Positions 5,243 to 51,829 of a stretch of DNA of 64,000 nt are shown here, piece after piece. The notes beneath the pieces are model-generated. The model was given only the letters and a program-made list of their open reading frames with translations, made no database searches and was not told the DNA's origin. The position numbers and the translations under genes are program-made. Source of the stretch: Candidatus Omnitrophota bacterium (lineage in GTDB: Bacteria > Omnitrophota > Omnitrophia > Omnitrophales > Aquincolibacteriaceae); the NCBI GenBank assembly GCA_022711115.1, contig JAKLFP010000005.1, positions 8,572 through 72,571 of the forward strand. The letters run 5' to 3'. Positions within the stretch are counted from its first letter, which is position 1. The number at the start of each line of letters is the position of its first letter.

Positions 5243-5352
5243 AGGGCAGGAAAAAATAATTTTTGTTACAGCAGCCTTTTAATATTTCTTAGCTTGACCT
5301 CCATCCCTTATAGAGAGTTTACAGGCAGGAAGTTCTTGTCTATACTCTCTTC

Positions 5353-9679: not shown

Positions 9680-9715
9680 ATTTTTTTGAATGTCATTTAA
9701 AAAGGAGAAAATGTC

Positions 9716-10468: not shown

Positions 10469-10593
10469 AGGCTGCGGAAATTTGGTGTTTCCTGAGGAAA
10501 TCTGACAAGGTCGGACAATGCGATTGAGTACGTCAATTATTTTTGCTACACTGACCCACTCATTTTTTAAAAATAAGCACTAAAGGATTTAAA

Positions 10594-12567: not shown

Positions 12568-13800
12568 ATGAAAATTCTTCATATTTGTGATTGGTATACC
12601 CCTATTGGGGGAGCCGAGAAACTTCTTTTCGGGACACTTGATAGGCTGGAGCAAAAAGGCCACACAAATATCGTGGTTTTCAACGAACATCCCCATCAGG
12701 GCCTGACGGGGAAGCGTGCTGAGTATGCCTGCAAGTTTCTGGAGCTTTTTGTGTATTTTCATCCTGACGCACCCTCTTTCGCAATGCAGTCTATTCCGCG
12801 ACTCAAGGAGATTATTGACCGGCATGCCCCTGATGTCTGTCATATCCACAATTTTCAAAATCCCTATGCGACAGAATTTTTGCTTGAAGAAATTCCCTGC
12901 GTTCGTTCTATTCACGATCCTCGCCTCTATTGTTTTACGAACTGGCGGTTACTGCCGGATCGCAGTATTTGCCCTTACCCTCTTGGTGTTGAATGTCTTC
13001 GACAAGGTTGTTTGTCTTCCGGGCTAAAGCCGAAGACCGATTTTGATAGGAACGCTTTTTGGGTATTGAGGCATCACAACCTGCATAAAAAGATGCCGGC
13101 GCTTATCCTGGAAAGCCGGATGCAAATGGACTGTATGATCCAGAACGGATTTTCACCGAAACAGCTTTTCTGGCTGCCTAATTCGACGTCGATTCAGCCC
13201 ATAACCGAGGTGCGGGAGTTTGTGGAAAAACACCATGACCCGAATGAACGCATCGTTCTGTTTGTCGGGCGGGCTTCGTATGAAAAGGGGATTCATGTGC
13301 TGGTGGAATCTTGTCGGTATCTTCGCAGTGACTGCAAGATTGTAATTATCACAGCGGGTCCTTTGCTTGAAGAGATCCAGCAGCAAGCTGCTGAATTTGG
13401 CGATCGCATTGAGGTGATTCCCGGGCTGTCTTATGAAGAAACCCGGGTCTACTATGCTCGAGCCTCCGTGGTGGCGGTCCCATCGGTTTGGCTTGAAAAT
13501 TTCTGTCTGGTCGGTCTGGAGGCCTTTGCCAATATGAGGCCCGTGATTGGTTCTCGTATCGGGGGTATCCGCGACTGGATGAAAGAGGAAGAGACAGGAT
13601 GGTTTTTTGAGCCGGGGAATTCAAAAGATCTGGCGGCTAGAATCGATAACGCATTCGAGAACAAAGAACGTCTTCAAGCCATGGGTGAGAGTGCGTATCG
13701 GCGAGTACAAACATATTATAACCAGGATCTCTATACCTTTCGTTTGTTAGAAATTTATTCAAAAGGAATCGAATATTTTAATGCTGAGAGGTGTCTGTGA
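12568..13800 (+). CDS. glycosyltransferase family 1 (GT4-like), copy 1
   Basis: N-terminal MKILHICDWYTPIGGAE and a C-terminal GT-B nucleotide-sugar-binding region (EAFANMRPVIGSRIGGIRDW). It is a paralog of the protein at 28071-29342. Confidence 0.75.
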   Translation: MKILHICDWYTPIGGAEKLLFGTLDRLEQKGHTNIVVFNEHPHQGLTGKRAEYACKFLELFVYFHPDAPSFAMQSIPRLKEIIDRHAPDVCHIHNFQNPYATEFLLEEIPCVRSIHDPRLYCFTNWRLLPDRSICPYPLGVECLRQGCLSSGLKPKTDFDRNAFWVLRHHNLHKKMPALILESRMQMDCMIQNGFSPKQLFWLPNSTSIQPITEVREFVEKHHDPNERIVLFVGRASYEKGIHVLVESCRYLRSDCKIVIITAGPLLEEIQQQAAEFGDRIEVIPGLSYEETRVYYARASVVAVPSVWLENFCLVGLEAFANMRPVIGSRIGGIRDWMKEEETGWFFEPGNSKDLAARIDNAFENKERLQAMGESAYRRVQTYYNQDLYTFRLLEIYSKGIEYFNAERCL

Positions 13801-14846
13801 AGGTCGCTTTGGTAAAGACACACAACCAGGTGCGTCTGGATGAGATCAAGACACCTGTGCCGAGTCCGGGTGAGGTTCTGCTTCAAATCGATGCTTGTGG
13901 TGTCTGCGGTAGCGACTATCTTGAGGCGACGGCTTGGGCGCACTCGTGGAAGCGTTTTGGTCATGAAATAGCCGCCACAGTATTTGCTACAGGAAACGGG
14001 GTAGAAGGATTCGCGGTGGGAGATCAAGTGGTTGTGGCGCTCTCTGTTGCTTGTGGGACATGCAAAAGCTGCCTAGCGGGTCATCCAAGACATTGTTCTC
14101 GTCTTATTATTGCAGAGCAAGGCGGTTTTGGAGATTATTTGTTGGTCAAAGATACCCGCCTTTTATTCAAAGTGGAGCCTCGCCTTCCGGTTGAATTAGC
14201 GGTCTTCACAGAGCCTGTTACCGTTGTGTTGGATGCTTTCCATCTTGTTGAATTAAAACCGGAAGATAAATTAGTAGTGATTGGCGGTGGTTTTATCGCC
14301 TGTATCGCTCTTTTGATCGCCAAGATTCTTGGGGTGATCCATCCCTTGGTATTAAGCCGCAAATCTCATCCGCTGCTGGATGCCTGTCTGGCATCGACAG
14401 GAGGGGATTATGTTTCATGGCTTGCAGTGGGAGAACATACGGTGGCAGCGCCAGAGACTTTTGCACAAAAACTCGCAGAACATACAGGACGTGTTGTGGC
14501 CATCCATACAGCTCCCGCCAAGTTCATGCCTCTTTATATTGAAAAATTGCCCTATGATTCTTGTGTCGTGAATTTGGGTTTGTCTGCAAGCGACAAAGAT
14601 AATGAGATGCCATTGGATGCATCGCGGCTTATTTTTAAAAGAATGCAAATTATGAGTGCTTTTCCGGTTCCCTGTCTTTACCTTGCGGAGGCGGTTCATC
14701 TTCTCCAGAAAAATCAGGATTTATTTTCTCTCCTGACCCCTGAAAGTCTTCCTCTCGAGCGGTTACCGGAAGTGATTGCAGCACCCCGGAAATTAAAACG
14801 TAAAATCATGATCGTTTCCCAACCGTCCGGAGGATTACGATCATGA
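13791..14846 (+). CDS. zinc-dependent medium-chain dehydrogenase/reductase (sorbitol/threonine dehydrogenase-like)
   Basis: CGVCGSD and GHE catalytic-zinc motifs, a structural-zinc Cys cluster (CGTCKSC...C) and a GGGFIA Rossmann motif. The start is 13791 (GTG) or 13797 (GTGA overlap with the upstream stop). Confidence 0.75.
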   Translation: MSVKVALVKTHNQVRLDEIKTPVPSPGEVLLQIDACGVCGSDYLEATAWAHSWKRFGHEIAATVFATGNGVEGFAVGDQVVVALSVACGTCKSCLAGHPRHCSRLIIAEQGGFGDYLLVKDTRLLFKVEPRLPVELAVFTEPVTVVLDAFHLVELKPEDKLVVIGGGFIACIALLIAKILGVIHPLVLSRKSHPLLDACLASTGGDYVSWLAVGEHTVAAPETFAQKLAEHTGRVVAIHTAPAKFMPLYIEKLPYDSCVVNLGLSASDKDNEMPLDASRLIFKRMQIMSAFPVPCLYLAEAVHLLQKNQDLFSLLTPESLPLERLPEVIAAPRKLKRKIMIVSQPSGGLRS

Positions 14847-17023
14847 GCTCAAAAGGTTCGCATACCAGGCCTATTTTTATCACCGCAAGGTTTCGAAGCG
14901 GTTCCACCCTTCTCTGGAATCTTTTTCGCAACCTACCGGGTTGCCTTGCTTTTTATGAACCCTGCAATGACCTTCTCACCACTCATATCGAGATAGATAC
15001 CAAACCCCCTCCGTCACATCAGGGAGTGACTTCCTATTGGGACGAGTATCGACCTATATTGGAAGAGTTGCGTTTGCGGTATCGTCAGGAATTCGGTCTG
15101 AACCATTTGTATTTAGAAAACCAGGATACGTATCCTGATTTTGAGAATTATATCCGTTTTTTGCTGAAAGCAGCTTCGGGAAAAGTCCCGGTGCTCCAGT
15201 TTAACCGAATAGATTTTCGTCTGCCATGGCTGCGCGAACGCTTTCCGAATGCATTTATTTTACACCTTACCAGAAATTCCAGAGATATGTGGTTTTCCAT
15301 GATACGAGGTCTCTCGGGTGAATCCTGGCGGGATCCTTTGGAAAACACGAACTATGATCTTTTGCTGTGGTCTGTAGCTCTTTCCAGTGAGTTTCCGTTT
15401 CTGTTTAGTCCTGAAGTTAAAACGACCTATCATCGTCATTATCTTCTCTGGCGGCTCAGTGGGCTCATGGGGACACAGCAAGCTGACATGACGCTGGATT
15501 TTGATCGTGATCTGCTTGGAACCCGGGAGAAGACACTTCAATTAATCACAGATCTTGTGGGAGCTGACAACGCGGAGATCGAACGTCTTGCGAAGCTGGT
15601 GGTCATGCCCGAAACTGGCGGTTGGAGAAAGTTGATCGATGGGCGCTGGTTTACTAAGGCCGAAATGGAATGTGATGCGCTTCTCGAAGAGTTAGGGCTT
15701 TTGGAGGATTTTGGGAAAAAACCGCTTGCAAGCATAAGAAAAAAACATCTTTCAGCATGGAATCATGCGACAGCTGCGGCAACGGAAAGGGTGGCTAAAG
15801 CGTCCGCAAAACTGTTCGGAATGCTGCGACGGGACCGGCTAGTTTTAGGTAAGGATCATGAACAATATGTGATCAATAGTGGAAATGTTATTCGCCATGA
15901 TAAAAAGTTGCTCGAGGATGCCGCTCACCGTTTAAACTCCGTGCAACAAAACTTTCAGGAAGCAGAGGAGTCGTTGCGTCTCAAACAGCAAGCATTTGAA
16001 GAAAGCCAAAAGGTTTTAGCAAACACCCAGACTGCACTTGAAAATAAGAGGCAGGAACTGGTTACGATCAATCAGCGTTATTCGGAGGTGCAGGAACAAT
16101 TACGCGCCAAGCAGCAAGCATTTGAAGAAAGCCAAAAAGTTTTAGCAAGCACCCAGACTGCACTTGAGAATAAGCGGCAGGAGCTGGTTTCGATAAACCA
16201 GCGTTATTCGGAGAAGCAGGAACAATTACGCGTCAATCAGCAAGCATTGGAAGAAAGCCAAAAGGTTTTAGCAAGCACCCAGACTGCGCTTAACAGTAAG
16301 AACCAGGAGTTGGTTGCGATAAATCAGCGTTATTCAGAGACGCAGGAACAATTACGTGTCAATCAGCAAGCATTCGAAGAAAATCAAAAAGTTTTGACGG
16401 GTACGCAGACTGAGCTCAACAGTAAGAGTCAGGAGCTAGCGGCGCTAAGCCAGTGTTTTTCAGAGACGAAGGATCTGTTGCGTGTCAAGCAGCAGGAATT
16501 CGAGGAAAGCCAAAAAGTTTTAGCAAACACCCAGACTGCGCTTGAAATTGAGAGGCAGGAGCTGGTTGCGATAAATCAGCGTTATTCGGAGACGCAGGAA
16601 CAATTACGCGTCAAACAGCAAGCATTTGAAGAAAGCCAAAAAGTTTTAGCAAGTACCCAGACTGCACTTGAAAATAAGAGCCAGGAGTTGGTTGCGATCA
16701 ATCAGCGTTATTCGGAGACGCAGGAACAATTACGTGTCAATCAGCAAGAATTCGAGGAAAGCCAAGAGGCTCTTTCGGATGCGCAAAATGGACTCAATGA
16801 AAAAGAGCGGGAACTCATTTTGATGAAGGAGACTCTTGGAGAAATGCGCCTGGAATTACACAAAGAAAGATCGGAGCTGGAAAATGCGCAAGAAATACTT
16901 ACTAATACAAGAATTATTTTAGCCCAAAATGAACAGATTTTGCGTGAAACCGCGCTTAGGGTTCAGCCGAAGCAATTTTTTCAAAAAAATTTCATAATTA
17001 AAAAAATAAAAAAATTTTTTTAA
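14843..17023 (+). CDS. sulfotransferase-domain protein with long C-terminal coiled-coil repeat region and basic amphipathic C-terminus
   Basis: The N-terminus has the PAPS 5'-phosphosulfate-binding motif (PIFITARFRSGSTLLWNLF) and the 3'-phosphate-binding motif (LHLTRNSRDMWFS). Residues about 378-671 are 7 tandem 42-aa heptad-like repeats (LRxKQQAFEESQKVLAxTQTALENKxQELVxINQRYSExQEQ). The C-terminal tail is KQFFQKNFIIKKIKKFF. ATGA overlap with the upstream gene. Confidence 0.75.
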   Translation: MSSKGSHTRPIFITARFRSGSTLLWNLFRNLPGCLAFYEPCNDLLTTHIEIDTKPPPSHQGVTSYWDEYRPILEELRLRYRQEFGLNHLYLENQDTYPDFENYIRFLLKAASGKVPVLQFNRIDFRLPWLRERFPNAFILHLTRNSRDMWFSMIRGLSGESWRDPLENTNYDLLLWSVALSSEFPFLFSPEVKTTYHRHYLLWRLSGLMGTQQADMTLDFDRDLLGTREKTLQLITDLVGADNAEIERLAKLVVMPETGGWRKLIDGRWFTKAEMECDALLEELGLLEDFGKKPLASIRKKHLSAWNHATAAATERVAKASAKLFGMLRRDRLVLGKDHEQYVINSGNVIRHDKKLLEDAAHRLNSVQQNFQEAEESLRLKQQAFEESQKVLANTQTALENKRQELVTINQRYSEVQEQLRAKQQAFEESQKVLASTQTALENKRQELVSINQRYSEKQEQLRVNQQALEESQKVLASTQTALNSKNQELVAINQRYSETQEQLRVNQQAFEENQKVLTGTQTELNSKSQELAALSQCFSETKDLLRVKQQEFEESQKVLANTQTALEIERQELVAINQRYSETQEQLRVKQQAFEESQKVLASTQTALENKSQELVAINQRYSETQEQLRVNQQEFEESQEALSDAQNGLNEKERELILMKETLGEMRLELHKERSELENAQEILTNTRIILAQNEQILRETALRVQPKQFFQKNFIIKKIKKFF
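15974..16855 (+). repeat. 7 x 126-bp in-frame tandem repeat inside the sulfotransferase gene
   Basis: Repeat units start at 15974, 16100, 16226, 16352, 16478, 16604 and 16730. Long stretches are identical between units (for example caagcatttgaagaaagccaaaa(g/a)gttttagcaa). Confidence 0.85.
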
Positions 17024-17056: not shown

Positions 17057-18790
17057 ATGGAAAACAAAAAAACTACACTTATCGAATTGGCTCTTTCACG
17101 ATTTAATTTCGCATTTAAAAAACCGAACAATTTTTTTGCAATGTTGCTTAGATACTTTTTAAAAGCAAAGAATAGAAATGATGCGATACCGACATTTATT
17201 AATTTAATTCATTCCCAGCATCCTTATGGGATGACAGTCAATGGTGTTGGTGGTCTGCAAGAAGGTGATAAGGGTTTGTATCGCTGGTTTTCAGGAAGTG
17301 AGACAATACTCCGATTCAAGTTGCCTCAGGAAAAAAATATGCAACTCTGTCTGGATTTTTACAACACCTTTCCTAACCAGAGCATATCGGTCATAATCAA
17401 TGGCCATGTCATGGAATCTTTTAATGATATTCATCCCGGGGCCAGAATAAAAAAACGGTACTCTTTTGAGGGGCATGCCAGTAACGAAATCGTACTGCAA
17501 TATAAAAAAACAAATAAATCACTCAAGCTTTATCCTGACGACGCAAGAGATTTAGCGGCAATCTTTTTTGAATTCAAAGTTCTTTTTAGCGATGTAAATG
17601 CGAACCGCCATTTGCAACGATTCGATCTTTCGTCGATTACATATCTTGGATCACCCCTTAAAAACGCTAGGCTGAATCGAGAAGAATATGAGAAGGGGCG
17701 AACGATTCTGAGAAGTCTTCCTTCTGTGGTAACATTAGCCTTGACGACATATTGCAACAATAAGATCCCGTGCCTCATTTGTGACAGGGTTACCCGTAAT
17801 AGGGTCACTGATTGCGACATCAGTGAAGAAATAATTAACAGTGCCAGTCCATTGCTTAAAACCGCGATGTATGTATTATTACATTCTGGTGGGGAGGCGA
17901 TGCTCTCACGACATTATGATAAACTAATAAAAGAAATTAATCCTCCCACACGAGTTTCTTTTGCTACAAACGCCATGCTCATGACGCCTAAACGGGCGGA
18001 TCTGATGCTTGAGAGGGATATTATGGCCGGTATCGTCATATCGTTAGATGCGGCTACGCCGGAGATGTACCGGCTCATGAGGCCAGGTTCGAACTTTGAA
18101 ACCGTGATTAAAAATGTCGCTTATTATATTGACAAGGCTAAAAGTTTAAATCGACATCACTCTAATGTTGATCTTAATATGACGCTTTGCAACTCCAATA
18201 TCATGGATGTCCCTAAACTGGTTGATCTTGCAAAGAAAATTGGTGCCCGCAGCATAAGTTATACTCATCTTAATATCGGGCTTCACCACAAAGTTCAGAC
18301 AGTCGAGGGTTGGGAGTGGGATTATGTCGAACAGATGAATTTTAAAAACAAGGAGCTGCATGACGATTTACTTTTTGAAGCCTATACTACAGCGAAAAAA
18401 AATGGGATAGTCATTTCTCTGCCATCGAATCGTCCCTACATCGGAAAAAACGCAGAAAAATATAATCAGTCAATGCTCAAAACTCCTTGTGAAATTCCTT
18501 TTCAAGAGAGTCAAGGGGTAAAGCATTGGGATTCGCGGTATCATCATAAGATCGCACCCCATATTCCGCTATGTTTTAAGCCTTGGCAGGAAATAGCTAT
18601 TCTCCCGGACGGGGCAACAAGAATTTGTTGCTTCCATGGTAGGGAATTCTACATTGGATATCTTCGGATGAACAATTTTATGAACATTTGGAATTCCGAT
18701 GTAATGGTAGCAACTCGGGAGCAATTTCTGGCTCATGGTGTGGCTCGTGTATGTGTAGAGTCGCAGCCTTGTCCTCACCGCCCGAAGTAA
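17057..18790 (+). CDS. radical SAM-like protein with non-canonical Cx5Cx2C cluster motif and Cys-rich (SPASM/twitch-like) C-terminus
   Basis: TYCNNKIPCLIC followed about 40 aa later by the glycine-rich SAM motif LLHSGGEAML. The C-terminus has CCFHG...CVESQPCPH. About 220 aa of N-terminal domain could not be assigned. Confidence 0.5.
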   Translation: MENKKTTLIELALSRFNFAFKKPNNFFAMLLRYFLKAKNRNDAIPTFINLIHSQHPYGMTVNGVGGLQEGDKGLYRWFSGSETILRFKLPQEKNMQLCLDFYNTFPNQSISVIINGHVMESFNDIHPGARIKKRYSFEGHASNEIVLQYKKTNKSLKLYPDDARDLAAIFFEFKVLFSDVNANRHLQRFDLSSITYLGSPLKNARLNREEYEKGRTILRSLPSVVTLALTTYCNNKIPCLICDRVTRNRVTDCDISEEIINSASPLLKTAMYVLLHSGGEAMLSRHYDKLIKEINPPTRVSFATNAMLMTPKRADLMLERDIMAGIVISLDAATPEMYRLMRPGSNFETVIKNVAYYIDKAKSLNRHHSNVDLNMTLCNSNIMDVPKLVDLAKKIGARSISYTHLNIGLHHKVQTVEGWEWDYVEQMNFKNKELHDDLLFEAYTTAKKNGIVISLPSNRPYIGKNAEKYNQSMLKTPCEIPFQESQGVKHWDSRYHHKIAPHIPLCFKPWQEIAILPDGATRICCFHGREFYIGYLRMNNFMNIWNSDVMVATREQFLAHGVARVCVESQPCPHRPK

Positions 18791-18852: not shown

Positions 18853-19638
18853 ATGATTAAATTAATACGCCATAATCGTCACCTGATTGCATCGATGGTT
18901 GCGCGCAATCTAAAGGCCCGATTTGCCGGGACTGCCATGGGAATACTCTGGTCATTTTTTTTACCACTCGTCCAGGTTTGTATCTATACCTTTGTATTCT
19001 CTGTCATCATGCATGCCAAAGCCCTTGGAGAATACCAGCATGTGCCGTTTCCGATATGGCTCTGCGCAGGGTTACTTCCTTGGAACATGTTTAGCGAGGG
19101 TTTGGGGATGGCTGTAGGTTCCATTACCGGGAATTCTCACATTGTCAAAAAGACGATGTTTGATAAAAGGATATTACCGCTTTGTTCGGTTATTACCAGT
19201 CTTGTCAACCACGGTATCGCTCTTTCAGTCCTGCTGGTTTTTATGTTGTTTTTCGGAATCCGTCCGGGATGGACCCTTTTGTGTTTGCCCCTAGTGAGCG
19301 TGATCGTGTTCTTATGGACGCTAGCTTGGGCCTATATCGTTGCCGCTTTGAATGTTTTTTTGCGTGATATCAGTCAAATGGTGGGAGTTATTTTAAACTT
19401 TTGTTTTTTTGCAACGCCTATTGTTTATTCTAAGGATCTTGTGCCGCCGGTTTTTGGAATGATTGTCAAAGCAAACCCGTTTTTTTATCTTTTACAAGCG
19501 TACCGAGAGATTATTTTGCTGAACAAGCTGCCCAATATTTTTGAATTATGCGTCGTCACAGCAGGGATCACGCTTTTTCTGTCTGCTGCGGTTTATTTAT
19601 TTAAGATTTTATCGTACGATTTTGCCGACTCTCTTTAG
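18853..19638 (+). CDS. wzm: ABC-2 type polysaccharide export permease (Wzm/TagG family)
   Basis: 261 aa with 6 TM segments. The N-terminus NRHLIASMVARNLKARFAGTAMGILWSFFLPL is characteristic of Wzm/KpsM-type permeases. Confidence 0.8.
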   Translation: MIKLIRHNRHLIASMVARNLKARFAGTAMGILWSFFLPLVQVCIYTFVFSVIMHAKALGEYQHVPFPIWLCAGLLPWNMFSEGLGMAVGSITGNSHIVKKTMFDKRILPLCSVITSLVNHGIALSVLLVFMLFFGIRPGWTLLCLPLVSVIVFLWTLAWAYIVAALNVFLRDISQMVGVILNFCFFATPIVYSKDLVPPVFGMIVKANPFFYLLQAYREIILLNKLPNIFELCVVTAGITLFLSAAVYLFKILSYDFADSL

Positions 19639-19655: not shown

Positions 19656-20978
19656 ATGGAAAATAAAGTACTGATCACGGTGGATGAGATATCGAAAAAA
19701 TACAAATTGTATAATAAGCCGTTTGACCGGTTGAAGGAATTGGCGGATCCCTTCCGGAGGCAATATCATCGTGATTTTTGGGCCCTTCGCGATATTTCTT
19801 TTGAAGTCCGCAGGGGAGAAAGCGTGGGTATTATTGGCGTGAATGGCAGCGGTAAATCCACCCTGCTTCAAATCATCTGCGGGATATTGAAACCCACGAA
19901 AGGTCAGGTGGAGGTCAACGGACGGATTTCAGCGCTCCTGGAGCTTGGGTCGGGATTCAATCCTGAATTGCCCGGCCGTGACAATGTCTATCTGCAAGGG
20001 GCTATGCTGGGATATTCGCCTCAAGAAATGAAAAGAAAATTTAACAAGATAGTAGAATTTGCGGATATCGGTGATTTTTTGGACCAGCCGGTTAAAACAT
20101 ACTCGTCCGGTATGATGATCCGTTTGGCATTCGCAGTGGCGATTCAGATTGATCCCGAAATTTTGATCGTCGACGAAGCCCTTTCCGTGGGAGATGTTTT
20201 TTTTCAGTCGAAATGTTTTCGAAGAATCGAAGAGCTATGCAACAAAGGTGTCACGATCTTATTTGTCTCGCATCAGCTAAGTACGATCCAATCCGTGTGC
20301 CAAAAGGCTATTCTGCTCGACAAGGGAAGGATTGTCTGCCAGGGAGATTCCAGAACCACAGTGGAGGCTTACATCCGTCATATTGCCACGTTGCATGGAG
20401 CCAGGGATATGGCAACGATCCAAGAAGATATACGGATTGAAAAAGAAGTCAAGGAAACGGTCGCCGCGGAAGATCATTCGAAAGACAACCTGGGCGATGA
20501 ACGTTTTTCAGCAACGAATCGTTATGGGACCGGCAAAGCGAGGCTTCTAAAATATGTCGTCAATGATTTGAATAATTGCAAGCAGATAGTGGTTCAATCC
20601 GCGGCTTCTTTAAAGATCCGGTTGACCTATAAAACACATGCGAGGATAGAAAAACCTTTTGTGGCTATTCGTATCAATACTGTTACAGGTGTTCAGATCT
20701 ATGGCAATAATACGACCTTTGCTAACGTTTCTTTGGAGTCTTGTTCAAAAGGAGATGAGATTGAAGTGGAGTTTGAGCAGTATTTGTACCTGAATCAAGG
20801 AAGCTATTTGCTGACATTCGCTTTTGCCGAATGGGGTGAACATGGGAAAGTAATCCATATCGATCGGTTTGTTGATGCGGTTCACATTAATGTAGCCGGC
20901 GGTCCTTATCCCTACGCCGGAATATGTAATTTTCAAGGGAAAGTAACCGTGCTTAATCATACGAAACAGGAGGCATGA
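19656..20978 (+). CDS. wzt: polysaccharide ABC exporter ATP-binding protein with C-terminal glycan-binding domain (Wzt/TagH family)
   Basis: Walker A GVNGSGKSTL, ABC signature YSSGMMIRLAFA and Walker B ILIVDEALSVGD, plus a C-terminal domain of about 190 aa as found in Wzt. Confidence 0.85.
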   Translation: MENKVLITVDEISKKYKLYNKPFDRLKELADPFRRQYHRDFWALRDISFEVRRGESVGIIGVNGSGKSTLLQIICGILKPTKGQVEVNGRISALLELGSGFNPELPGRDNVYLQGAMLGYSPQEMKRKFNKIVEFADIGDFLDQPVKTYSSGMMIRLAFAVAIQIDPEILIVDEALSVGDVFFQSKCFRRIEELCNKGVTILFVSHQLSTIQSVCQKAILLDKGRIVCQGDSRTTVEAYIRHIATLHGARDMATIQEDIRIEKEVKETVAAEDHSKDNLGDERFSATNRYGTGKARLLKYVVNDLNNCKQIVVQSAASLKIRLTYKTHARIEKPFVAIRINTVTGVQIYGNNTTFANVSLESCSKGDEIEVEFEQYLYLNQGSYLLTFAFAEWGEHGKVIHIDRFVDAVHINVAGGPYPYAGICNFQGKVTVLNHTKQEA

Positions 20979-21703
20979 TGGAAAAGGTGGTTTTTACAAG
21001 TATCCCTAAAACTGGAACGCATCTTTTATTGAGATATTTTTATTTTATTAACTTTAAACAAGCTGGACCCTATGCTGTCCCCTTTTTTGACAAAAAATTT
21101 TACGACTTTATCAGAAATTTAAAATCTGGCGAATACAGCGTGTGGCATTATCACTGGAGTGAAGAACTTGCCGCGATCACTCGTGACGTAGGAGCAAAAG
21201 TTGTTTTTCTCTATAGAGATCCCCGTGCCTGGGTCAGTTCTACGCTGCATTGGATCATGCGGTCACCGACAAACCCCCTTCACGAATTATTTGCGAACCA
21301 TTTTAAGACTGATCAGGAAAGAATTGAAGTATTGATCAAGGGTTCGAACAGCGATGCAATTTCCCCTCCAATTCAAAGTATGAATAATTTTTGGCATACC
21401 TACGAGGGATGGCTGTATGAGCCCAATGTTTATAAAGTACGTTTTGAGGACATTATAGGGCCTCGAGGCGGCGGAGATAAAGAAACGCAACTGCGTGTCT
21501 TGGGTGAATTAATGCAATTTACAGGGGTGAGGAATGAATCGGTCACTAAAGAAGAGATTATCGATCAGCTTTTTTCTTCTGAGGTCGAGACGTTCCGAAA
21601 GGGAACTATCGACTCATGGCGTGAGGATTTTACCCCCGAACTCCACGACTTGTTTTTGAAGGAGGCCGGTGAATTGCTTAAAGTCTGGGGATATGCCCCT
21701 TAA
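20975..21703 (+). CDS. sulfotransferase-domain protein (tandem paralog 1)
   Basis: 5'-PSB-like motif TSIPKTGTHLL and 3'-PB-like motif FLYRDPRAWVSS. ATGA overlap with the wzt stop. Confidence 0.65.
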   Translation: MMEKVVFTSIPKTGTHLLLRYFYFINFKQAGPYAVPFFDKKFYDFIRNLKSGEYSVWHYHWSEELAAITRDVGAKVVFLYRDPRAWVSSTLHWIMRSPTNPLHELFANHFKTDQERIEVLIKGSNSDAISPPIQSMNNFWHTYEGWLYEPNVYKVRFEDIIGPRGGGDKETQLRVLGELMQFTGVRNESVTKEEIIDQLFSSEVETFRKGTIDSWREDFTPELHDLFLKEAGELLKVWGYAP

Positions 21704-21820
21704 GGCATGTCAGTAAGACCAGAAAACGATTCATGGGCCTAGGCCACCAGCAAATTTCATGTGGCAACATGGAAATCTTAATTAACAGGGATCATATAAA
21801 AATCGTCTGGAAAGCAGCTG

Positions 21821-22618
21821 ATGGAAAAAGTGCTTTTTGTGAGTATCCCGAAATGCGGAACGCATCTTTTATGGCGATATTTCCCTTTTGTGGGTTTTAA
21901 GTATGAAGGCCCGTACGATGCCGCTTCATTCAAAATAGAATTTTATGATTATGTTCGAAATTTAAAAGAAGGGTTTTACAGCGCCTATCATTTTCTTTTG
22001 ACGGAAGAATTGTCAGAAATCATCAGATCGAATGGCATTAAAACCGTTTTTTTATATCGTGATCCCCGGGCACAAATTTGCTCAAATAAGAATTATATCC
22101 TAAAAACGCCTTCCCACATATTGCATCGGCATTTTACGGAAGATATGACCGATGATGAAGACAGAATCAAACTGCTCATTCAGGGGTTTGATCCCGACAA
22201 GGATAAGCTATACAAAGAGATTTACCAGAAGCCCATGTACCCTATTTCTTTTCGAAAAAAAGGTCCTGATTTTAAATTTCGAGGAGGGATTAACGCGCTT
22301 TATAGTACCTACGCCCCGTGGCTTGAAGCACCCAACTGCTATTGTGTCCGTTTTGAGGATTTGGTGGGTCCTAAGGGCGGAGGCAGCGCTGAGCGACAGT
22401 TGCAAGTCGTTCGTGAATTAATGGATTTCACGGGGACACCTCGTGGAAGATTAGATCCGAAAGAAGTCGCCAATATCCTTTACAATGAAAAGGCAGATAC
22501 GTTTCATAAAGGTCAAATTGATTCGTGGCGGGAAGAATTTACTCCGGAGTTGCACAAAATCTTTATGCGCGAAGCCGGTGAATTACTGAAATATTGGGGC
22601 TATCCAGAGGATGTTTGA
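21821..22618 (+). CDS. sulfotransferase-domain protein (tandem paralog 2)
   Basis: VSIPKCGTHLL and FLYRDPRAQICS motifs. Its C-terminus (DSWREEFTPELHKIFMREAGELLKYWGY) is nearly identical to that of paralog 1. Confidence 0.65.
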   Translation: MEKVLFVSIPKCGTHLLWRYFPFVGFKYEGPYDAASFKIEFYDYVRNLKEGFYSAYHFLLTEELSEIIRSNGIKTVFLYRDPRAQICSNKNYILKTPSHILHRHFTEDMTDDEDRIKLLIQGFDPDKDKLYKEIYQKPMYPISFRKKGPDFKFRGGINALYSTYAPWLEAPNCYCVRFEDLVGPKGGGSAERQLQVVRELMDFTGTPRGRLDPKEVANILYNEKADTFHKGQIDSWREEFTPELHKIFMREAGELLKYWGYPEDV

Positions 22619-25051: not shown

Positions 25052-25981
25052 TTGGGTATTGGGGAAGTTATAGCCCGCATCACCTATGTGAAACCATGGT
25101 ATTTGAAATTAATTGAAGAACAAAAAGCCAATTATTTAAGAATCAAACCGCGCATCAATGCATTAGGTTTGAGGGGCGGAGATTACCAAGCAACAAAAGC
25201 ACCGAATTGTATGCGAGTCCTTGTTTTGGGAGATTCTTTTACTTTTGGTTCGGGAGTCGGCGATGATGCGGCGATCTTTCCGGAAGTGTTGGAAAATAAA
25301 CTCAGCATGGAATTTCTGCGGCAAGGGGAAAAAATCGAAATTTTAAATGGCGGTATTCCCGGAAGTCTTACGAGCGATTGGGTGGACCTTTTGTTAAAAC
25401 TAAAAGACCCTTTTAAGCCCGATATCATTTTGGTGGTATTTTTTATGCGCGATGGAACAAAAACCAGTTCCATGGGAAGCTTTTTTTCACCCATACGGGA
25501 AGAAATGAAGTTGCGGGACAAGCAATCTTTTCTATACCAGCACCTGTTTTTTTTCAGATTCATTCAGGAATACCGAGACCGTGTCTGGTTATCCAAAAAA
25601 TATTCTACCGCATTGCTTGAGTCTTATTTTGGGGATACCACGCAAACAGAGGAATGGCAAAATGCGCAAAGAAATATTTTGAAGATTAAGAAGCTCGGAG
25701 ATGAAATGAACGCCAAGGTGGCGCTGGTGGTTTTTCCAATACTTGTTGAATTAAATCGAAATTATCCTTTCAAAGACATTGATCGAGCTGTTAGTGAATT
25801 TGGGATCCGGCATCATATTCCTGTCCATAGTCTTTTGCCTGCTTTTATGGGGAAAAATGGAGCTCAATTATGGGTATCTCATTACGATCAACATCCCAAT
25901 GCGCAGGCGCATTTGATCGCAGCGGATTCTATTTTACCCTTCTTGAGAGAATTGCTAGTATCAACGGGCGCTGGAAATTAA
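25052..25981 (+). CDS. SGNH/GDSL-family hydrolase (possible glycan O-acyl esterase/transferase)
   Basis: GDS(F) block VLVLGDSFTFGSG and downstream SGNH-like blocks (NGGIPG, DQHPN). The ORF track starts at a TTG (25052); the ATG at 25211 (MRVLVLGDSF) is an alternative start. Confidence 0.55.
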   Translation: MGIGEVIARITYVKPWYLKLIEEQKANYLRIKPRINALGLRGGDYQATKAPNCMRVLVLGDSFTFGSGVGDDAAIFPEVLENKLSMEFLRQGEKIEILNGGIPGSLTSDWVDLLLKLKDPFKPDIILVVFFMRDGTKTSSMGSFFSPIREEMKLRDKQSFLYQHLFFFRFIQEYRDRVWLSKKYSTALLESYFGDTTQTEEWQNAQRNILKIKKLGDEMNAKVALVVFPILVELNRNYPFKDIDRAVSEFGIRHHIPVHSLLPAFMGKNGAQLWVSHYDQHPNAQAHLIAADSILPFLRELLVSTGAGN

Positions 25982-26220
25982 AATAGTGTCAATATTCATT
26001 TGAGATTGAACGAGCTAACCAAAGAAACCGGAACATACTCATTCTTCGCTTTTCCCGTTCTTTATCATGGTTTTTTCCCGATGATTCAAATGTATGGAGT
26101 CATGAGATTCAGAGCGATCAGCCCTTGGACCAGTAACTTTTTGAGAAAGATCAAAACTCACCACATATTACAAAGATCAACCGCTGAGATTTTAAAAATG
26201 AAATTATCAGGATTGAAATC

Positions 26221-28074
26221 ATGAAAATCCTTTTGATCAACCCGCCGGGGTGGCAGGACGGAAGTGTCAGTCTTGGGCTGGCGTATCTTTCAGGCGCTTT
26301 GCTTCAAGGAGGTCACGAGGTCAAAATTCTTGATTTCACCGGGAAAAACACAACGCCGGAAGCCATTGCCGAGATGGCAAGAGAGTGGGAGCCTGAGTTC
26401 ATTGGCTTACATATAAAGACAGCACAGGCTAATACCGCATCTAAAATTTCCAAGGCTATAAAGAAAATTTTTCCTCATGCGCTTCATGTGGCAGGGGGGC
26501 CGCATGTGACGCTTTGTTATGAAAAATACCTGAAGGAGAATCCGGAGTTTGAATATGGATTCTCGGGAGAGGCCGATCGCAGTTTTCCCGAGTTTTGCGA
26601 AAGGATTCAGAAAAAGGAATCTGTTGAAAGCCTGGGAGGACTGATCTTCCGGCGAAACGGAAAAATCATTCTAAACACACCGGAACCGATTCTTGATCTT
26701 GATCATTTGCCGCAGCCCTGTTTTGATGTTATGGAAGGTTTCCATTGGGCTGGATTTCGTTACCCTCTTTTAACAAGCCGCGGATGTTCCTATCAGTGTA
26801 ATTTTTGTTCCGTTCCTCGTTTATCAGGAAAAAAATTTCGTTATCGATCACCGCAAAATTGCATCGAAGAATTAGCTCGCGTTAAAGCTGACAAAGGGAT
26901 CCAATCGTTCGAAATTCTCGATGACAATTTTACGTTTTTGATGGATCGCGCAAAAGATTTCTGTCGCAAGTTGATCAAGGCCGATCTCCATCTCTCATGG
27001 TATTGCCATAACGGTATCCGTGCCGACAGGTTTGACGATGAACTTGCCGGACTCATGAAAGAAGCGGGGTGCACGAGCGTTGCTTTTGGTATTGAATCGG
27101 GTGATGAGGCCGTGTTCCGCAGGATCAATAAAGGCGAAAAACTGGAGCAGATTGTACAGGCGATTGCCACGGCCCGAAAGGCAGGGCTTCAGACGGTCGG
27201 ATATTTTATTATCGGGCTTCCGGGGGATAGTTTGCAGGCGGTGAAGAGAACGATCGCTTTCCAGAAAACTCTCAAGCTGGACCATTATATCTATGGCATT
27301 TTTATACCTTACCCCGGGACCAAGGGAGAAGAGGATGTCTTAAGGGAAGGCAGAATCCTTCGGGATATTAGGGAAACAAGCCATTTTTCTGACCGGCCAC
27401 AAGTTCCCATCGAATACCCTTATTTTACAAAAGAAGAGATAGAAGAGGCTTACTATTTGGCATCTGCGGGGGAGTTGCTTGATCTTATCGAAACATGGAA
27501 GATCAACGGTTCCTTGAAAAATGTTATTTTTGTTGAAATGAATCCGCCGACCTATGCCTTTCGCAGGTTTTCTCGATGGGTGGAGGGAGGGATGGATCTT
27601 TTGATCAATGCGATTTTTGACGGCTGTTTTGAGCTTGATAAAAAAGAAGGATCGGTGCGGCAGGTCTATTCCTACCAACATTATTTGTATCGCTGGCGGA
27701 TGATTCGAGAACTCGTCAGTCATTTTTGGCTTCTTCGGAAAAAAAGATACCAATTGGCTTTTTTCCCGTTCAAAAGAAGAAAATCCGTCCTTTTATTTTT
27801 TTGGGCGATTGTGGGTGCGAAACATACTGTGCTTTATGATTTTGAGGGGAGCCGTTTTGTGGAAATCTCTCTGCGAAGCCCCCATTTCCGGTCTTTTTTG
27901 AAAAGATACATAAAAAAGCAAATCCCAAACATTCCCTGGATATTGCTCGACGGCATCAGCGGTATCTTTGAAGGCGTCCTTCAAAGGATCATTCATGCCG
28001 GTATTTGTTGTTATCTCTATTTCCGAAAGCCTTTTTCATCGGAAGCTCTTCAAAAGGAAAACGGAGAAAAATGA
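26221..28074 (+). CDS. B12-binding-domain radical SAM protein (copy 2) with divergent C-terminal extension
   Basis: Paralog of 10594-12321 with the same order of B12-binding, radical SAM (CSYQCNFC) and SAM motifs. About 200 aa of extra hydrophobic/basic C-terminal tail. Confidence 0.8.
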   Translation: MKILLINPPGWQDGSVSLGLAYLSGALLQGGHEVKILDFTGKNTTPEAIAEMAREWEPEFIGLHIKTAQANTASKISKAIKKIFPHALHVAGGPHVTLCYEKYLKENPEFEYGFSGEADRSFPEFCERIQKKESVESLGGLIFRRNGKIILNTPEPILDLDHLPQPCFDVMEGFHWAGFRYPLLTSRGCSYQCNFCSVPRLSGKKFRYRSPQNCIEELARVKADKGIQSFEILDDNFTFLMDRAKDFCRKLIKADLHLSWYCHNGIRADRFDDELAGLMKEAGCTSVAFGIESGDEAVFRRINKGEKLEQIVQAIATARKAGLQTVGYFIIGLPGDSLQAVKRTIAFQKTLKLDHYIYGIFIPYPGTKGEEDVLREGRILRDIRETSHFSDRPQVPIEYPYFTKEEIEEAYYLASAGELLDLIETWKINGSLKNVIFVEMNPPTYAFRRFSRWVEGGMDLLINAIFDGCFELDKKEGSVRQVYSYQHYLYRWRMIRELVSHFWLLRKKRYQLAFFPFKRRKSVLLFFWAIVGAKHTVLYDFEGSRFVEISLRSPHFRSFLKRYIKKQIPNIPWILLDGISGIFEGVLQRIIHAGICCYLYFRKPFSSEALQKENGEK

Positions 28075-29342
28075 AAATACTCCATGTCTGTGATTGGTAT
28101 CGGCCGTTTGGAGGTGCGGAAAGGCTTCTCTTGGGGACATTGGAACTTTTGGAGGCGGCAGGGCATCAAAATATCATAATCACTTCGGATCACCCCTCGC
28201 AGATGAGGACGGGTAAGCGTTTGGAATATTTCCTTCCCAATCTCGAAATCAATTTCGCGTTATTGCCCCGGTGGAGAATTTTTGCACGAAATATGAAACA
28301 GCTTCAAAAAAACATCGGAGCTATTATCCGGGAACACAGGCCGGATGTGATTCATATCCACAATCTGCAAAATCCTTATGTGATTCAAATCTTAACTCCA
28401 TTGGCTCCTACGGTGCGATCTGTTCATGATCCAAGGCTTTATTGTTTTACGAACTGGAGATTGCTTCCCAATAACGAAATTTGTCCTCATCCTCTGGGAA
28501 AGGCTTGCCTAAAAGAAAAATGCTTGTCGTGGAACTTTTTGAGGCTTTCGAACACTGAAAAATGGGCGCCGTTCAAGTTAATGCATTTGCGCGAAAACAA
28601 AAAAATCGATATGCTGATAGCGGAATCTCATGCCGTGGAAGCCTGTTTAAGGCAAAATGGATTCTCCGATCTCCAGATTGCTCTGCTTCCTAATTACACG
28701 GAGAAAAAAGGGGAATGGCGGCAGGTCGAAGCATTTAACCGGCGTTATCACGTTCCAGGACAACGCGTGGTTGTTTTTGTGGGCAGGGCTTCTTACGAAA
28801 AAGGAATAGAGCATTTGGTGGAAGCCATGGCGCTGATCCCTAGGCCGTGGAAGCTGGTCCTTGTGACGGGCGGGGAATATCTCGGCCGGGTGCGTGAAAA
28901 GATCGAGGCTTTGAATCTTGGCGATGCCGTAGAGATCCCCGGAGTTCATGATTATGAAACAACACGCACCTATTATGCCCGCTCCGATGTGGTGGTTGTT
29001 CCTTCTGTTTGGATGGAATCTTTTTGTCTGGTGGGGCTTGAGGCGATGGCAAACGGGAAACCCGTTGTTGCTTTTCGGGCAGGCGGTATTCCGGATTGGC
29101 TTCTAGACAATGAAACAGGCCTTTTGGCGCCTGTCAGGGATGTCAAAGCGCTCGCGGGGAAAATACAAACATTGCTTGATAATGAAAAACTTGCCCGTGA
29201 AATGGGCAGAAAAGGATATGAAAGAGCCGCAAAAGTTTTTTCGAAAGAACGATATCTTTCGGCTCTGGAAGGAATTTTTCAAAAAGCAATCCAGCTGAAA
29301 AACAAAAGCCATAAAGCAAACGTTACACAAAACCAAGCCTAA
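28071..29342 (+). CDS. glycosyltransferase family 1 (GT4-like), copy 2
   Basis: MKILHVCDWYRPFGGAE N-terminus and GT-B C-terminal motif EAMANGKPVVAFRAGGIPDW. ATGA overlap with the upstream radical SAM gene; the ORF-track start at 28005 was rejected as an upstream read-through. Confidence 0.75.
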   Translation: MKILHVCDWYRPFGGAERLLLGTLELLEAAGHQNIIITSDHPSQMRTGKRLEYFLPNLEINFALLPRWRIFARNMKQLQKNIGAIIREHRPDVIHIHNLQNPYVIQILTPLAPTVRSVHDPRLYCFTNWRLLPNNEICPHPLGKACLKEKCLSWNFLRLSNTEKWAPFKLMHLRENKKIDMLIAESHAVEACLRQNGFSDLQIALLPNYTEKKGEWRQVEAFNRRYHVPGQRVVVFVGRASYEKGIEHLVEAMALIPRPWKLVLVTGGEYLGRVREKIEALNLGDAVEIPGVHDYETTRTYYARSDVVVVPSVWMESFCLVGLEAMANGKPVVAFRAGGIPDWLLDNETGLLAPVRDVKALAGKIQTLLDNEKLAREMGRKGYERAAKVFSKERYLSALEGIFQKAIQLKNKSHKANVTQNQA

Positions 29343-29484
29343 AATTTTAACGTAGAAATAAAACCCTTTCTCGCGTTTTTAGGCGAAATTCACAATAACT
29401 TAAAGTGCGGTGTAGTGAAAAGCATAGAGGTTGATGAATATGACTGTCGATCTTGAACTCGAAGCTAAAGTGGAATAACCGATC

Positions 29485-35132: not shown

Positions 35133-35253
35133 GAGAAATTCCTCATATGAGTAATAAATATTATTCATTTACTTTATACATCGAACTGTGCCATAATGCA
35201 ACCCTTAAATGGGCAACTCAAAAGCTTTCTGCAGTTCTAACCAGGAGGAAATC

Positions 35254-46517: not shown

Positions 46518-46712
46518 TAAAAATATTCCGATACAGCGTTTTTTTGATGATGGAGGAGTCAACCTTTGTACTTGAATTTAAAGGGCTTACGTTTAGTATA
46601 AATGCCAATTTCCATTTTGTGAATCTCCATCGATGCGTTGAATATCGGAGTTTACTCCCAAGGCTCAGCACGAACTTTTTTTTTAAAATCATCAACGATT
46701 AAGGAGTCAACT

Positions 46713-47771: not shown

Positions 47772-47878
47772 AGCAAATGTTATTCTTGCTGGGGCCTTTC
47801 AAGGTGCTAGAAGGAATCACTTTGTGGGGTAACATCGATTTAACCCCAATGAAATGCATGACTAGAGGAATCTGACCT

Positions 47879-50674: not shown

Positions 50675-50676
50675 CC

Positions 50677-51801: not shown

Positions 51802-51829
51802 GTTTAATCATCGTAGAGGAGAACATTCA

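Follow-up and report, generated by a model that had tools for sequence, protein, structure and literature searches.

Why two small sulfotransferase-like genes should lie directly behind the ATPase gene of a glycan exporter, and on what their products might act, is the question raised by a locus in the window, a 64,000-nt stretch from the metagenome-assembled genome (MAG) of an uncultivated Omnitrophota bacterium. An earlier note had described the two as tandem paralogs, cytoplasmic and coupled to wzt, within a glycan locus carrying a third sulfotransferase; this overall picture held in every test that was run on it. Both ORFs are present on the plus strand with the sizes originally reported, and are referred to here as A and B. 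The pair is laid out as follows.

20968..20978, + strand: wzt-A junction; AGGAGG at 20968-20973, ATG at 20975, wzt stop TGA at 20976-20978, second ATG at 20978
20975..21703, + strand: small sulfotransferase A, 242 aa from the first ATG; short mid-region form
21704..21820, unstranded: spacer between A and B, 117 nt
21821..22618, + strand: small sulfotransferase B, 265 aa; mid-region 22 residues longer than that of A; H replaces the RKG arginine

Direct reading of the junction bears out the proposed ATGA overlap between A and the wzt stop, the first ATG occupying 20975-20977; even the second ATG has one base in common with the stop. This second ATG is the start of a 241-aa NCBI database entry (P0001) that is 100% identical to A and bears the name 'sulfotransferase domain-containing protein [Candidatus Omnitrophota bacterium]'. 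The sulfotransferase label for protein A is already in NCBI, and the cluster type is already known. Consensus scans for promoters and terminators around the pair, including the spacer, yielded nothing above shuffled expectation. Co-transcription and translational coupling to wzt would keep the sulfotransferases and the exporter in step.

A and B share 47% identity across 261 alignment columns (E 1e-86 in a pairwise protein comparison). This similarity lies far beyond chance, and the two are paralogs. The shared blocks that had been claimed are found in both proteins, as FTSIPKTGTHLLL and VVFLYRDPRAW in A and as FVSIPKCGTHLLW and TVFLYRDPRAQ in B. The C-termini, in contrast, are less alike than the "near-identical" ends that had been described: over the last 47 aligned codons, identity amounts to 60% in protein and 36% at third codon positions. 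With nucleotide identity at 56% overall and third-position identity at 41%, recent duplication or gene conversion was rejected as the source of the C-terminal likeness, which from the alignments is best read as family-wide conservation (TFRKGxIDSWRE...WGY) and not as recent copying. Third-position identity is raised (57%) only in the first 60 codons, a tract that weakly hints at an old conversion between A and B. The proteins diverge most in the mid-region (24% identity, versus 44-60% elsewhere), mainly in the stretch from the 3'-phosphate-binding helix to the FED strand, which contains the additional residues of B.

Family assignment was addressed by profile and fold searches. Both proteins match Pfam PF00685 (Sulfotransfer_1), A with 28.1 bits and B with 23.1 bits against a gathering cut-off of 22, margins of just 1-6 bits. 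The earlier note had pointed to the Sulfotransfer_3 and Stf0 families; this assignment was rejected, the Pfam and NCBIfam searches for it being negative. Neither A nor B matches PF13469 at E <= 0.01, and their family is the SULT-like Sulfotransfer_1. A also gives a sub-threshold match to Sulfotransfer_4 (16.7 bits, cut-off 22.8), and searches of NCBIfam with A and B returned no match, there being no NCBIfam model for the subfamily. The family profile A1 matched SULT7A1 with E 3e-12 and retrieved 38 PDB sequences, all named sulfotransferases except for retinol dehydratase, a PAP-binding member with the same fold. AlphaFold2 models were obtained with pLDDT 94 and pTM 0.91 for A and pLDDT 92 for B, whose insert (about residues 125-156) is modelled as a helix and a loop with pLDDT around 75. 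Among the best 50 Foldseek matches of each model in the PDB, all have the sulfotransferase fold, with TM scores up to 0.68 (A) and 0.63 (B). The nearest solved structures in these sets are small-molecule SULTs, not carbohydrate sulfotransferases, and because of this the fold is uninformative on a glycan acceptor.

Mouse SULT7A1 (PDB 5x2b; Foldseek E 7e-9, TM 0.68 with A), an example of the cytosolic SULTs, carries PAPS-site motifs in the same order as A and B: PKxGTH, catalytic His, Rx7S, (Y/F)ED and FRKGxxxxW. When A is aligned to PAP-bound SULT7A1, PKTGTH falls on PKSGTH, H58 on the histidine of PTHL, FLYRDPRA..S on IVRNPKD..S and FRKGTIDSW on FRKGVVGDW. Cytosolic SULTs differ from the pair in sharing only 13-18% identity with it and in serving small-molecule metabolism, whereas A and B come from a bacterium and are encoded alongside a glycan exporter; A and B are also about 40 residues shorter, and their family has an invariant GPxGGG loop of its own past the FED strand. 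According to a review, the defining features of sulfotransferases are the PSB lysine, the PB serine and the catalytic histidine (PMC11625862). The PSB motif PKxGT reads P11-K12-T-G14-T15 in A and P10-K11-C-G-T in B, with the lysine kept in 68 of 72 homologues. The 3'-phosphate-binding arginine and the serine eight residues on (R81..S89 in A, R80..S88 in B) are each conserved in 71/72, and the catalytic histidine (H58 in A, H57 in B) in all 72. Other invariant positions are D82-P83-R84, E158, G162, G165, G167, T206, F207, G210 and W215. The Asp of the RxxxDxxxS consensus (PMC11625862) is Ala in the A/B family.

Intact PAPS-site motifs, together with the fold, lead us to predict that A and B are PAPS-dependent sulfotransferases with a SULT-like fold. 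The opposing idea, that they belong to another P-loop family of kinases or NTPases and resemble sulfotransferases by chance, could draw on the narrow Pfam margins and the silence of NCBIfam. It was ruled out by the fold and profile searches and retains a barely more than negligible probability: no kinase or NTPase, which the earlier note had named as the finding that would overturn its reading, occurs in the best 50 fold matches of either model, all PDB sequence matches of the family profile have the sulfotransferase fold, every PAPS-site motif can be matched, one residue after another, to a PAP complex, and PAPS genes are linked. The cytoplasmic placement likewise stood, as Kyte-Doolittle profiles revealed no TM-like segment or hydrophobic, signal-like N-terminus in either protein (maximum over 19 residues, 0.59 and 0.71).

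The one feature only partly present in B is the C-terminal motif. A has TFRKGTIDSW (R208-K209-G210), while B has TFHKGQIDSW, keeping K, G and W but with the arginine changed to histidine, one of three deviations at this position among the 72 sequences. Substitutions in the PAPS site (R208H/D/N, K12Q) occur only in the wzt-linked clade, and those of its copies with D, N or H at the RKG arginine, or Q at the PSB lysine, need not all be active. Separately, naturally occurring proteins combine two or three domains of the family in a single chain (P0095, P0097, P0098), and two of the three domains of P0095 are without PKxGT and RKG. SULTs are dimers. These observations would fit an arrangement in which a single member of the pair is catalytic and its partner in a heterodimer is impaired or non-catalytic, serving acceptor binding or regulation; B would be the likelier candidate for this second role. 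We consider this rather improbable, since B retains K11, H57, R80..S88, the K-G of RKG and every invariant family residue, a histidine is still able to contact phosphate, and one copy suffices in three of the related loci described below (L005, L006 and L009).

The surrounding genes form a string on the same strand, which includes cysD, cysN-cysC, three sulfotransferase genes of two families, three GT4 genes, one GT2 gene and wzm/wzt.

5353..6771, + strand: Wzy_C (O-antigen-ligase-like) polytopic membrane protein; PF04932 34 bits vs 31.7, nine TM-like segments
6843..7748, + strand: CysD, sulfate adenylyltransferase small subunit; NF003587 456 bits vs 195, PAPS_reduct domain
7748..9679, + strand: CysN-CysC fusion (sulfate adenylyltransferase large subunit and APS kinase); NF004035 899 bits vs 715, APS_kinase and GTP_EFTU domains
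9716..10468, + strand: TauE/SafE-family anion permease; PF01925 98 bits
10594..12321, + strand: B12-binding radical SAM enzyme, conserved module; domain searches, synteny
12568..13800, + strand: GT4 glycosyltransferase, conserved module; Glycos_transf_1 113.7 bits, synteny
13791..14846, + strand: Zn-dependent dehydrogenase (ADH_N), conserved module; domain searches, synteny
14843..17023, + strand: large sulfotransferase; N-terminal Sulfotransfer_3 domain, then a long coiled-coil-like region
17057..18790, + strand: radical SAM/SPASM protein, between the large sulfotransferase gene and wzm in all six loci
18853..19638, + strand: Wzm, ABC-2 permease; ABC2_membrane 62.5 bits, five TM-like segments
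19656..20978, + strand: Wzt, ABC ATPase with C-terminal carbohydrate-binding domain; ABC_tran 89 bits, Wzt_C 93 bits
22735..24858, + strand: 707-aa polytopic membrane protein immediately 3' of B; at least six TM-like segments
25052-25981, + strand: GDSL esterase/acyltransferase-like protein, beginning the rest of the glycan gene string (25052..31687)
26221-28074, + strand: B12-binding radical SAM enzyme
28005-29342, + strand: GT4 glycosyltransferase
29485-30702, + strand: GT4 glycosyltransferase
30683-31687, + strand: GT2 glycosyltransferase

The third sulfotransferase-like gene, noted previously at 14843, was confirmed as Sulfotransfer_3, its product matching PF13469 over residues 10-178 with 27.8 bits (cut-off 27); residues of about 340-700 match SMC and other coiled-coil models. 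The 707-aa membrane protein has no match in Pfam or NCBIfam, and no similarity was found to the large unknown proteins in L005 and L009, of which it had been considered a possible homologue. The cysD and cysN-cysC genes lie 11-14 kb upstream of A. Their products are predicted to make PAPS, and because both genes belong to the same gene string they strengthen the sulfotransferase reading. The combination of cysD/cysN/cysC with sulfotransferases and an ABC transporter has been defined as the hallmark of sulfated polysaccharide clusters (PMC11641403), and by its predicted gene content the locus displays this hallmark.

The order large sulfotransferase, radical SAM/SPASM protein, wzm, wzt, small sulfotransferase recurs in five metagenomic loci (L001, L005, L006, L007 and L009). 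Orthologues of the large sulfotransferase measure 490-659 aa in L001 and L005-L007, and L009 shows only the C-terminal end of one. The small gene occurs in one to three copies per syntenic locus (a single copy in L005, L006 and L009), with a mosaic in one locus. Kinship among the copies is crosswise: the short A is closest to the long L001_c, and the long B to the short L001_a and L001_b. Simple orthology of short and long forms across loci was rejected on this ground, and mid-region length must therefore have changed independently or by recombination.

The genomic context also bears on the nature of the acceptor. If A and B acted not on the polymer but on a precursor or on something else (for example a nucleotide sugar, lipid or small metabolite), linkage to wzt would reflect shared regulation only. 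The small-molecule SULTs nearest in structure agree with this. So does L002, an Acidobacteriota genome whose close tandem pair has an MFS transporter and unknown genes as neighbours and is not part of a recognisable glycan cluster, as do most of 78 distant family loci, which have no wzm/wzt in their flanks; this survey, however, used window proteins as tblastn queries and would therefore miss divergent glycan genes. Against such an acceptor, the close subfamily follows wzt in six loci, and members in L003 and L008 stand beside GT4, pyruvyl-transferase and ABC-2 genes. We regard it as improbable. An APS kinase gene is found within 6 kb in 8 of the 78 loci, and in L008 an APS kinase gene and an inositol-monophosphatase-family gene (the family of CysQ) adjoin the sulfotransferase gene. 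The arrangement wzm-wzt-sulfotransferase also occurs in three Desulfobacteraceae genomes, with a sulfotransferase only 26-27% identical; the wzt match upstream of it covers no more than about 230 aa, too few to accommodate a C-terminal domain.

We thus return to the glycan as acceptor, and to the manner in which it might be modified. The C-terminal 160 aa of Wzt match PDB 2r5o (E 3.8e-5), a solved O9a-type domain that binds the chain-terminating modification in Escherichia coli O9a. In that system, Wzm and a Wzt with a C-terminal carbohydrate-binding domain are likewise accompanied by a coiled-coil-bearing modifying enzyme, WbdD, a kinase-methyltransferase adding phosphate and methyl, and its gene, wbdD, follows wzt directly, the very place taken by the small sulfotransferase genes in six loci. 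One or both of A and B could accordingly be imagined to make a non-reducing-end cap, the terminal sulfate stopping growth and being read by the Wzt C-terminal domain while the large coiled-coil protein does something else. The cap in O9a is phosphate plus methyl, whereas the candidates here are sulfotransferases. It is the large sulfotransferase, with its catalytic domain and coiled coil (490-726 aa, variable in length), that comes nearer to the architecture of WbdD; the one to three paralogs, whose acceptor regions diverge, are more than a single cap calls for; and the Desulfobacteraceae wzt genes leave no C-terminal domain to read it. A capping role for the small enzymes is thus unlikely in our view.

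A moderately probable reading, and the one we favour, is that A and B are soluble cytoplasmic O-sulfotransferases acting on the lipid-linked glycan at different positions before ABC export. CysD and CysN-CysC would supply PAPS, and the glycosyltransferases of the locus would assemble the glycan at the inner membrane face, linked to a lipid carrier. A and B would each move sulfate from PAPS onto a glycan hydroxyl, most likely with separate acceptor residues or positions, because their mid-regions differ and B has the longer one. Wzm/Wzt would then export the sulfated chain, and its attachment would probably fall to the ligase-like protein. The variation in copy number and the concentration of divergence in the mid-region both speak for different acceptors. 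We infer that the acceptor is the glycan, that A and B modify different positions in it and that sulfation is internal and not terminal. The division of labour proposed earlier, in which internal residues are modified by the small enzymes while the large one adds the cap, is a plausible, putative split, and the reverse arrangement is likewise compatible with the data.

Several described systems resemble the locus. The cluster for the sulfated capsular polysaccharide of Vibrio sp. KMM 8419 (PMC11641403) also unites copies of cysD/cysN/cysC with several sulfotransferase genes and an ABC transporter, but this is a KpsM/KpsT capsule-type exporter in place of Wzm/Wzt with Wzt_C. Its sulfotransferase genes are scattered, not arranged in tandem behind the ATPase gene, and it is a cluster with a product of known structure. 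Synechan, made by the xss cluster of Synechocystis PCC 6803 with two sulfotransferase genes (XssA and XssE), carries two sulfates per eight-sugar repeat (PMC8205485). That cluster is Wzx/Wzy-dependent with no PAPS genes reported, unlike the Wzm/Wzt locus here; sulfotransferase genes have also been noted in ABC-type cyanobacterial clusters (PMC8205485). NodH, LpsS, KpsS and Stf0 of rhizobia and mycobacteria exemplify bacterial cytoplasmic PAPS-dependent sulfation of surface glycoconjugates. They are of the Sulfotransfer_3/Stf0 type with an RxG-type PSB, like the large sulfotransferase, whereas the PSB of A and B is of the lysine type seen in PF00685. Compared by description only, ORF19 ('Hyp') of the ABC-dependent wb(salmo) O-antigen cluster of Aeromonas salmonicida is a 216-aa sulfotransferase-domain protein whose gene, like that of A, comes right after wzt (PMC4483657). 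Its O-antigen is not known to contain sulfate, and the description of the cluster mentions no PAPS genes (PMC4483657); this example counts against a glycan-sulfation reading.

A bolder scheme combines elements of the alternatives: the wzt-linked small sulfotransferases would form a hetero-oligomer of catalytic and degenerate subunits docked on Wzm/Wzt, and sulfation would end chain growth and license export via the Wzt carbohydrate-binding domain, replacing the phosphate/methyl or Kdo signal. We hold this to be a long shot. The multi-domain fusions and the clade-confined PAPS-site substitutions can be seen to foreshadow it. If true, ABC-dependent glycans would gain an additional class of signal for chain termination and export, and the locus would be the first sulfated LPS-type glycan system on record for Omnitrophota.

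The finding as we favour it changes no concept and is a sound but fairly ordinary case of a known arrangement. Only a small number of polysaccharide sulfotransferases from bacteria have been characterised, and regiospecific ones are wanted for sulfated glycan synthesis (PMC11625862, PMC11641403). The locus offers a compact, self-contained test set, with PAPS genes, three sulfotransferases and an ABC exporter with a cap-binding domain, and its five syntenic relatives, with one, two or three small sulfotransferases, amount to a natural experiment on the contribution of each copy. Judged from its genes, this bacterium probably makes a sulfated surface glycan, which points to surface display of such glycans in Omnitrophota, a phylum of which metagenomes are almost the only record.

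Directly after wzt, the gene of the exporter ATPase, the ORF listing and translation give two reading frames on the + strand: A (20975-21703, 242 aa) and B (21821-22618, 265 aa). The proteins align over 261 columns with 47% identity (E 1e-86) and have the SIPK(T/C)GTHLL and VFLYRDPRA blocks in common. The tandem paralogy proposed in an earlier note from sequence reading is thus borne out, as is the proposed ATGA overlap with wzt: the first ATG of A, at 20975, overlaps the wzt stop TGA at 20976-20978. An AGGAGG motif (20968-20973) lies ahead of this start; the database entry, of 241 aa, begins at a second ATG, 20978. The two genes are separated by a 117-nt spacer, in which consensus scans identified neither promoter-like nor terminator-like sites; in the wider region around the pair, matches to such consensuses were not above those in shuffled sequence. 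The assertion that A and B are free of transmembrane segments and signal peptides also held, no hydrophobic segment compatible with either being found in the two proteins. "Near-identical C-termini", by comparison, was too strong a description: the last 47 aligned codons show 60% protein identity and 36% identity at third positions, and the C-terminal TFRKGxIDSWRE...WGY block is conserved family-wide, beyond A and B. The observation as a whole is confirmed.

Assignment to a family by profile is narrow. A and B pass the Pfam Sulfotransfer_1 cut-off (22 bits) with 28.1 and 23.1 bits, respectively, and no NCBIfam model matches either one. A search of 5.8 billion proteins yielded 93 relatives, and the entry matching A at 100% is annotated as [quoted passage not shown]. 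AlphaFold2 models were confident for both A (pLDDT 94, pTM 0.91; 72 homologues used) and B (pLDDT 92, pTM 0.91). For either model, the best 50 Foldseek PDB matches comprise only PAPS-dependent sulfotransferases and retinol dehydratase, which binds PAP and has the same fold; the top match is SULT7A1 with PAP (A, E 7e-9, TM 0.68; B, E 1.5e-6, TM 0.63). Likewise, the 38 PDB sequences matched by the family profile all have the sulfotransferase fold. Kinases and other NTPases, which according to the earlier note would have spoken against the assignment as best fold matches, are absent from both sets, and the assignment therefore stands on this point. We conclude with high confidence that A and B are sulfotransferases; that they are something else, as the slim Pfam margins might suggest, is extremely unlikely.

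Every element of the PAPS site of SULT7A1 is matched in A. PKTGTH pairs with PKSGTH, H58 with the histidine of PTHL, FLYRDPRA..S89 with IVRNPKD..S, and FRKGTIDSW with FRKGVVGDW. Across the 72 homologues, H58, D82-P83-R84, E158, G162, G165, G167, T206, F207, G210 and W215 (numbering of A) are invariant, and K12, R81, S89 and R208 nearly so. Conserved residues of the K12, S89 and H58 type are those that a review names as defining sulfotransferases: the PSB lysine, the PB serine and the catalytic histidine (PMC11625862). A GPxGGG loop behind the FED strand is particular to the A/B family. Taken together, the results show A and B to be soluble paralogs that fold like sulfotransferases and have a PAPS site that is complete in essence. 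B has a histidine in place of R208, one of three deviations at this position among the 72 sequences, and deviations in the PAPS site (R208H/D/N, K12Q) are confined to the wzt-linked clade. One of the two might on this account be a non-catalytic partner; next to the otherwise complete site, we regard this as quite unlikely.

The pair lies within a string of + strand genes.

Genes of the + strand string, approximately 5353-31687
5353-6771, +, Wzy_C ligase-like membrane protein
6843-7748, +, CysD (NCBIfam 456 bits, cut-off 195)
7748-9679, +, CysN-CysC fusion (NCBIfam 899 bits, cut-off 715)
9716-10468, +, TauE-family permease
10594-12321, +, B12-radical SAM enzyme
12568-13800, +, GT4
13791-14846, +, Zn-dehydrogenase
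14843-17023, +, large sulfotransferase, 726 aa (N-terminal Sulfotransfer_3 and long coiled-coil-like region)
17057-18790, +, radical SAM/SPASM protein
18853-19638, +, Wzm
19656-20978, +, Wzt with Wzt_C domain
20975-21703, +, sulfotransferase A
21821-22618, +, sulfotransferase B
22735-24858, +, 707-aa polytopic membrane protein without family match
25052-25981, +, GDSL protein
26221-28074, +, second B12-radical SAM enzyme
28005-29342, +, GT4
29485-30702, +, GT4
30683-31687, +, GT2

PAPS synthesis genes are encoded together with A and B: CysD and CysN-CysC score far above their cut-offs, so the locus encodes its own PAPS supply. The third sulfotransferase-like gene, reported at 14843, is indeed present, its 726-aa product having an N-terminal Sulfotransfer_3 domain. 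In architecture this protein recalls WbdD, which in E. coli O9a serves as terminator and "ruler", here with a sulfotransferase head. Its coiled-coil-like tail matches SMC and Rad50 models, and its orthologues measure 490-726 aa (L001 2743-4236, L005 4451-5998, L006 4458-5930, L007 3116-5095, in related loci described below).

Further features of the window were recorded. The 707-aa membrane protein directly after B has a large soluble C-terminal part. It matches nothing in Pfam or NCBIfam, does not resemble the large unknown proteins found in loci L005 and L009, and might act as a GT-C-like periplasmic transferase. The two B12-binding radical SAM enzymes, one of which is kept in the syntenic loci, may act as C-methylases or modify sugars in some other unusual way. 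A 605-aa alkaline-phosphatase-superfamily protein (1666-3483, -) with a Phosphodiest and a weak Sulfatase match is encoded on the opposite strand, upstream of the sulfation locus. Just past the glycan locus are three surface proteins (33101-34003, 35209-36261, 36301-37776), one each of the PEP-CTERM, autotransporter beta-domain and DUF11-repeat types, and amid their genes a divergent LysR regulator (34248-35168, -). Two LssY_C-domain proteins (45135-46517, +; 58494-59849, -) have between their genes an efflux set (46638-53233) of HlyD, fused ABC ATPase-permease, ABC-2 permease and outer-membrane efflux protein.

The order large sulfotransferase, radical SAM-SPASM, wzm, wzt, small sulfotransferase(s) is kept in five metagenomic or MAG loci (L001, L005, L006, L007 and L009, the sequence of the last beginning inside the large sulfotransferase); L001 and L005-L007 also have B12-radical SAM, GT4 and ADH_N genes upstream. 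The 577-aa radical SAM/SPASM protein of the window (17057-18790; L009 counterpart 802-2553) is kept between the large sulfotransferase and wzm in 6/6 loci, counting the window. All six have small sulfotransferases placed directly behind the gene of the exporter ATPase; L009 has an extra 379-aa radical SAM/SPASM gene (4779-5918) between wzt and its small sulfotransferase. Adjacency to wzt is conserved; overlap with it is not (gaps of 13-170 nt). Copies number three in L001, two in L007 and one each in L005, L006 and L009. Residues of the PAPS site that are otherwise near-invariant are changed in B (R208H), in L001_b (R208D; L001 9068-9781), and in L006_a (L006 10001-10819) and L007_b (L007 10001-10813), both K12Q; L006_a is the sole small sulfotransferase of its locus.

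Tandem pairs of the subfamily recur in Acidobacteriota, in L002 outside a glycan cluster and in L003 adjoining ABC-2, GT4, B12-radical SAM and pyruvyl-transferase genes. A single copy in L008 adjoins genes for APS kinase, a Sulfotransfer_4 protein and an inositol-phosphatase-family protein. A one-genome-per-species scan returned 172 relatives, the best 80 of which (78 distinct loci) come from many phyla and are 24-34% identical. About 19 of the 78 loci have at least two copies within 6 kb, the flank of 8 contains an APS kinase, and three, in Desulfobacteraceae genomes, show the wzm-wzt-sulfotransferase arrangement. When 1.84 billion representatives were searched by profile, relatives numbered 4088 (E <= 1e-3), of which 710 reached E <= 1e-30, the close subfamily comprising only about a dozen representatives. 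Some of the best profile matches combine two or three domains of this family in one polypeptide (P0098, 550 aa; P0095, 784 aa; P0097, 832 aa); P0095 has lost the PKxGT and RKG motifs in two of its three domains. Judged from sequence, these fusions hint that the paralogs may work together, some being non-catalytic.

The duplication that gave rise to A and B is old, as indicated by 56% DNA identity and 41% identity at third codon positions. Third-position identity reaches 57% in the first 60 codons (20978-21157 versus 21821-22000), as opposed to 28-39% elsewhere, a pattern that an old gene-conversion tract may have left. A and B diverge most in the mid-region, which runs from the 3'-PB helix to the FED strand (24% identity); the 22 additional residues of B there were modelled as a helix and a loop of moderate confidence. 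Loop length and relatedness are discordant: the closest copy to the short A is the long L001_c, whereas the long B is nearest to the short L001_a/b. The L001 copies (8135-10852) are mosaic, a and b having 100% DNA identity over the 3' ~60%, and b and c 98% over the first 60 codons; the tandem copies may have recombined, or the pattern may be an artefact of metagenome assembly.

The mid-region corresponds to where the acceptor-binding loops of SULTs lie, and since A and B diverge most there, each would sulfate a position of its own. On balance we favour A and B acting as cytoplasmic O-sulfotransferases on a lipid-linked glycan, at the cytoplasmic face and ahead of Wzm/Wzt export; small-sulfotransferase copy number would vary like a decorating function. 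The interpretation first offered, of cytoplasmic sulfotransferase paralogs coupled to wzt, is supported. The synechan cluster, with two sulfotransferase genes and two sulfates per repeat, offers a parallel to the pair (PMC8205485). Alternatively, the small enzymes might make a terminal cap read by Wzt_C; the last 160 residues of Wzt (about 280-440) match the solved Wzt C-terminal domain 2r5o. We consider the cap unlikely. In Aeromonas salmonicida, a small sulfotransferase-domain gene directly follows wzt and sulfate is not known in the O-antigen (PMC4483657), which calls for caution in reading A and B as glycan-sulfating enzymes; an acceptor other than the polymer is regarded as unlikely.

A and B belong to an already known kind of sulfotransferase and cluster. 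In Sinorhizobium, LpsS sulfates LPS. The window locus, with cysD/cysN-cysC, sulfotransferases and an ABC exporter, resembles the cluster of Vibrio KMM 8419, where cysDNC, sulfotransferases and an ABC exporter were termed a hallmark of sulfated polysaccharide synthesis (PMC11641403). Specific to the present case are the GPxGGG-loop subfamily, a conserved module in which a coiled-coil sulfotransferase is joined by a radical SAM/SPASM protein, small sulfotransferases whose copies are mosaic and vary in number, and the domain fusions of their family. The more unusual questions concern the locus as a whole: whether sulfate may serve as an export-licensing cap, and what role the coiled-coil sulfotransferase would have.
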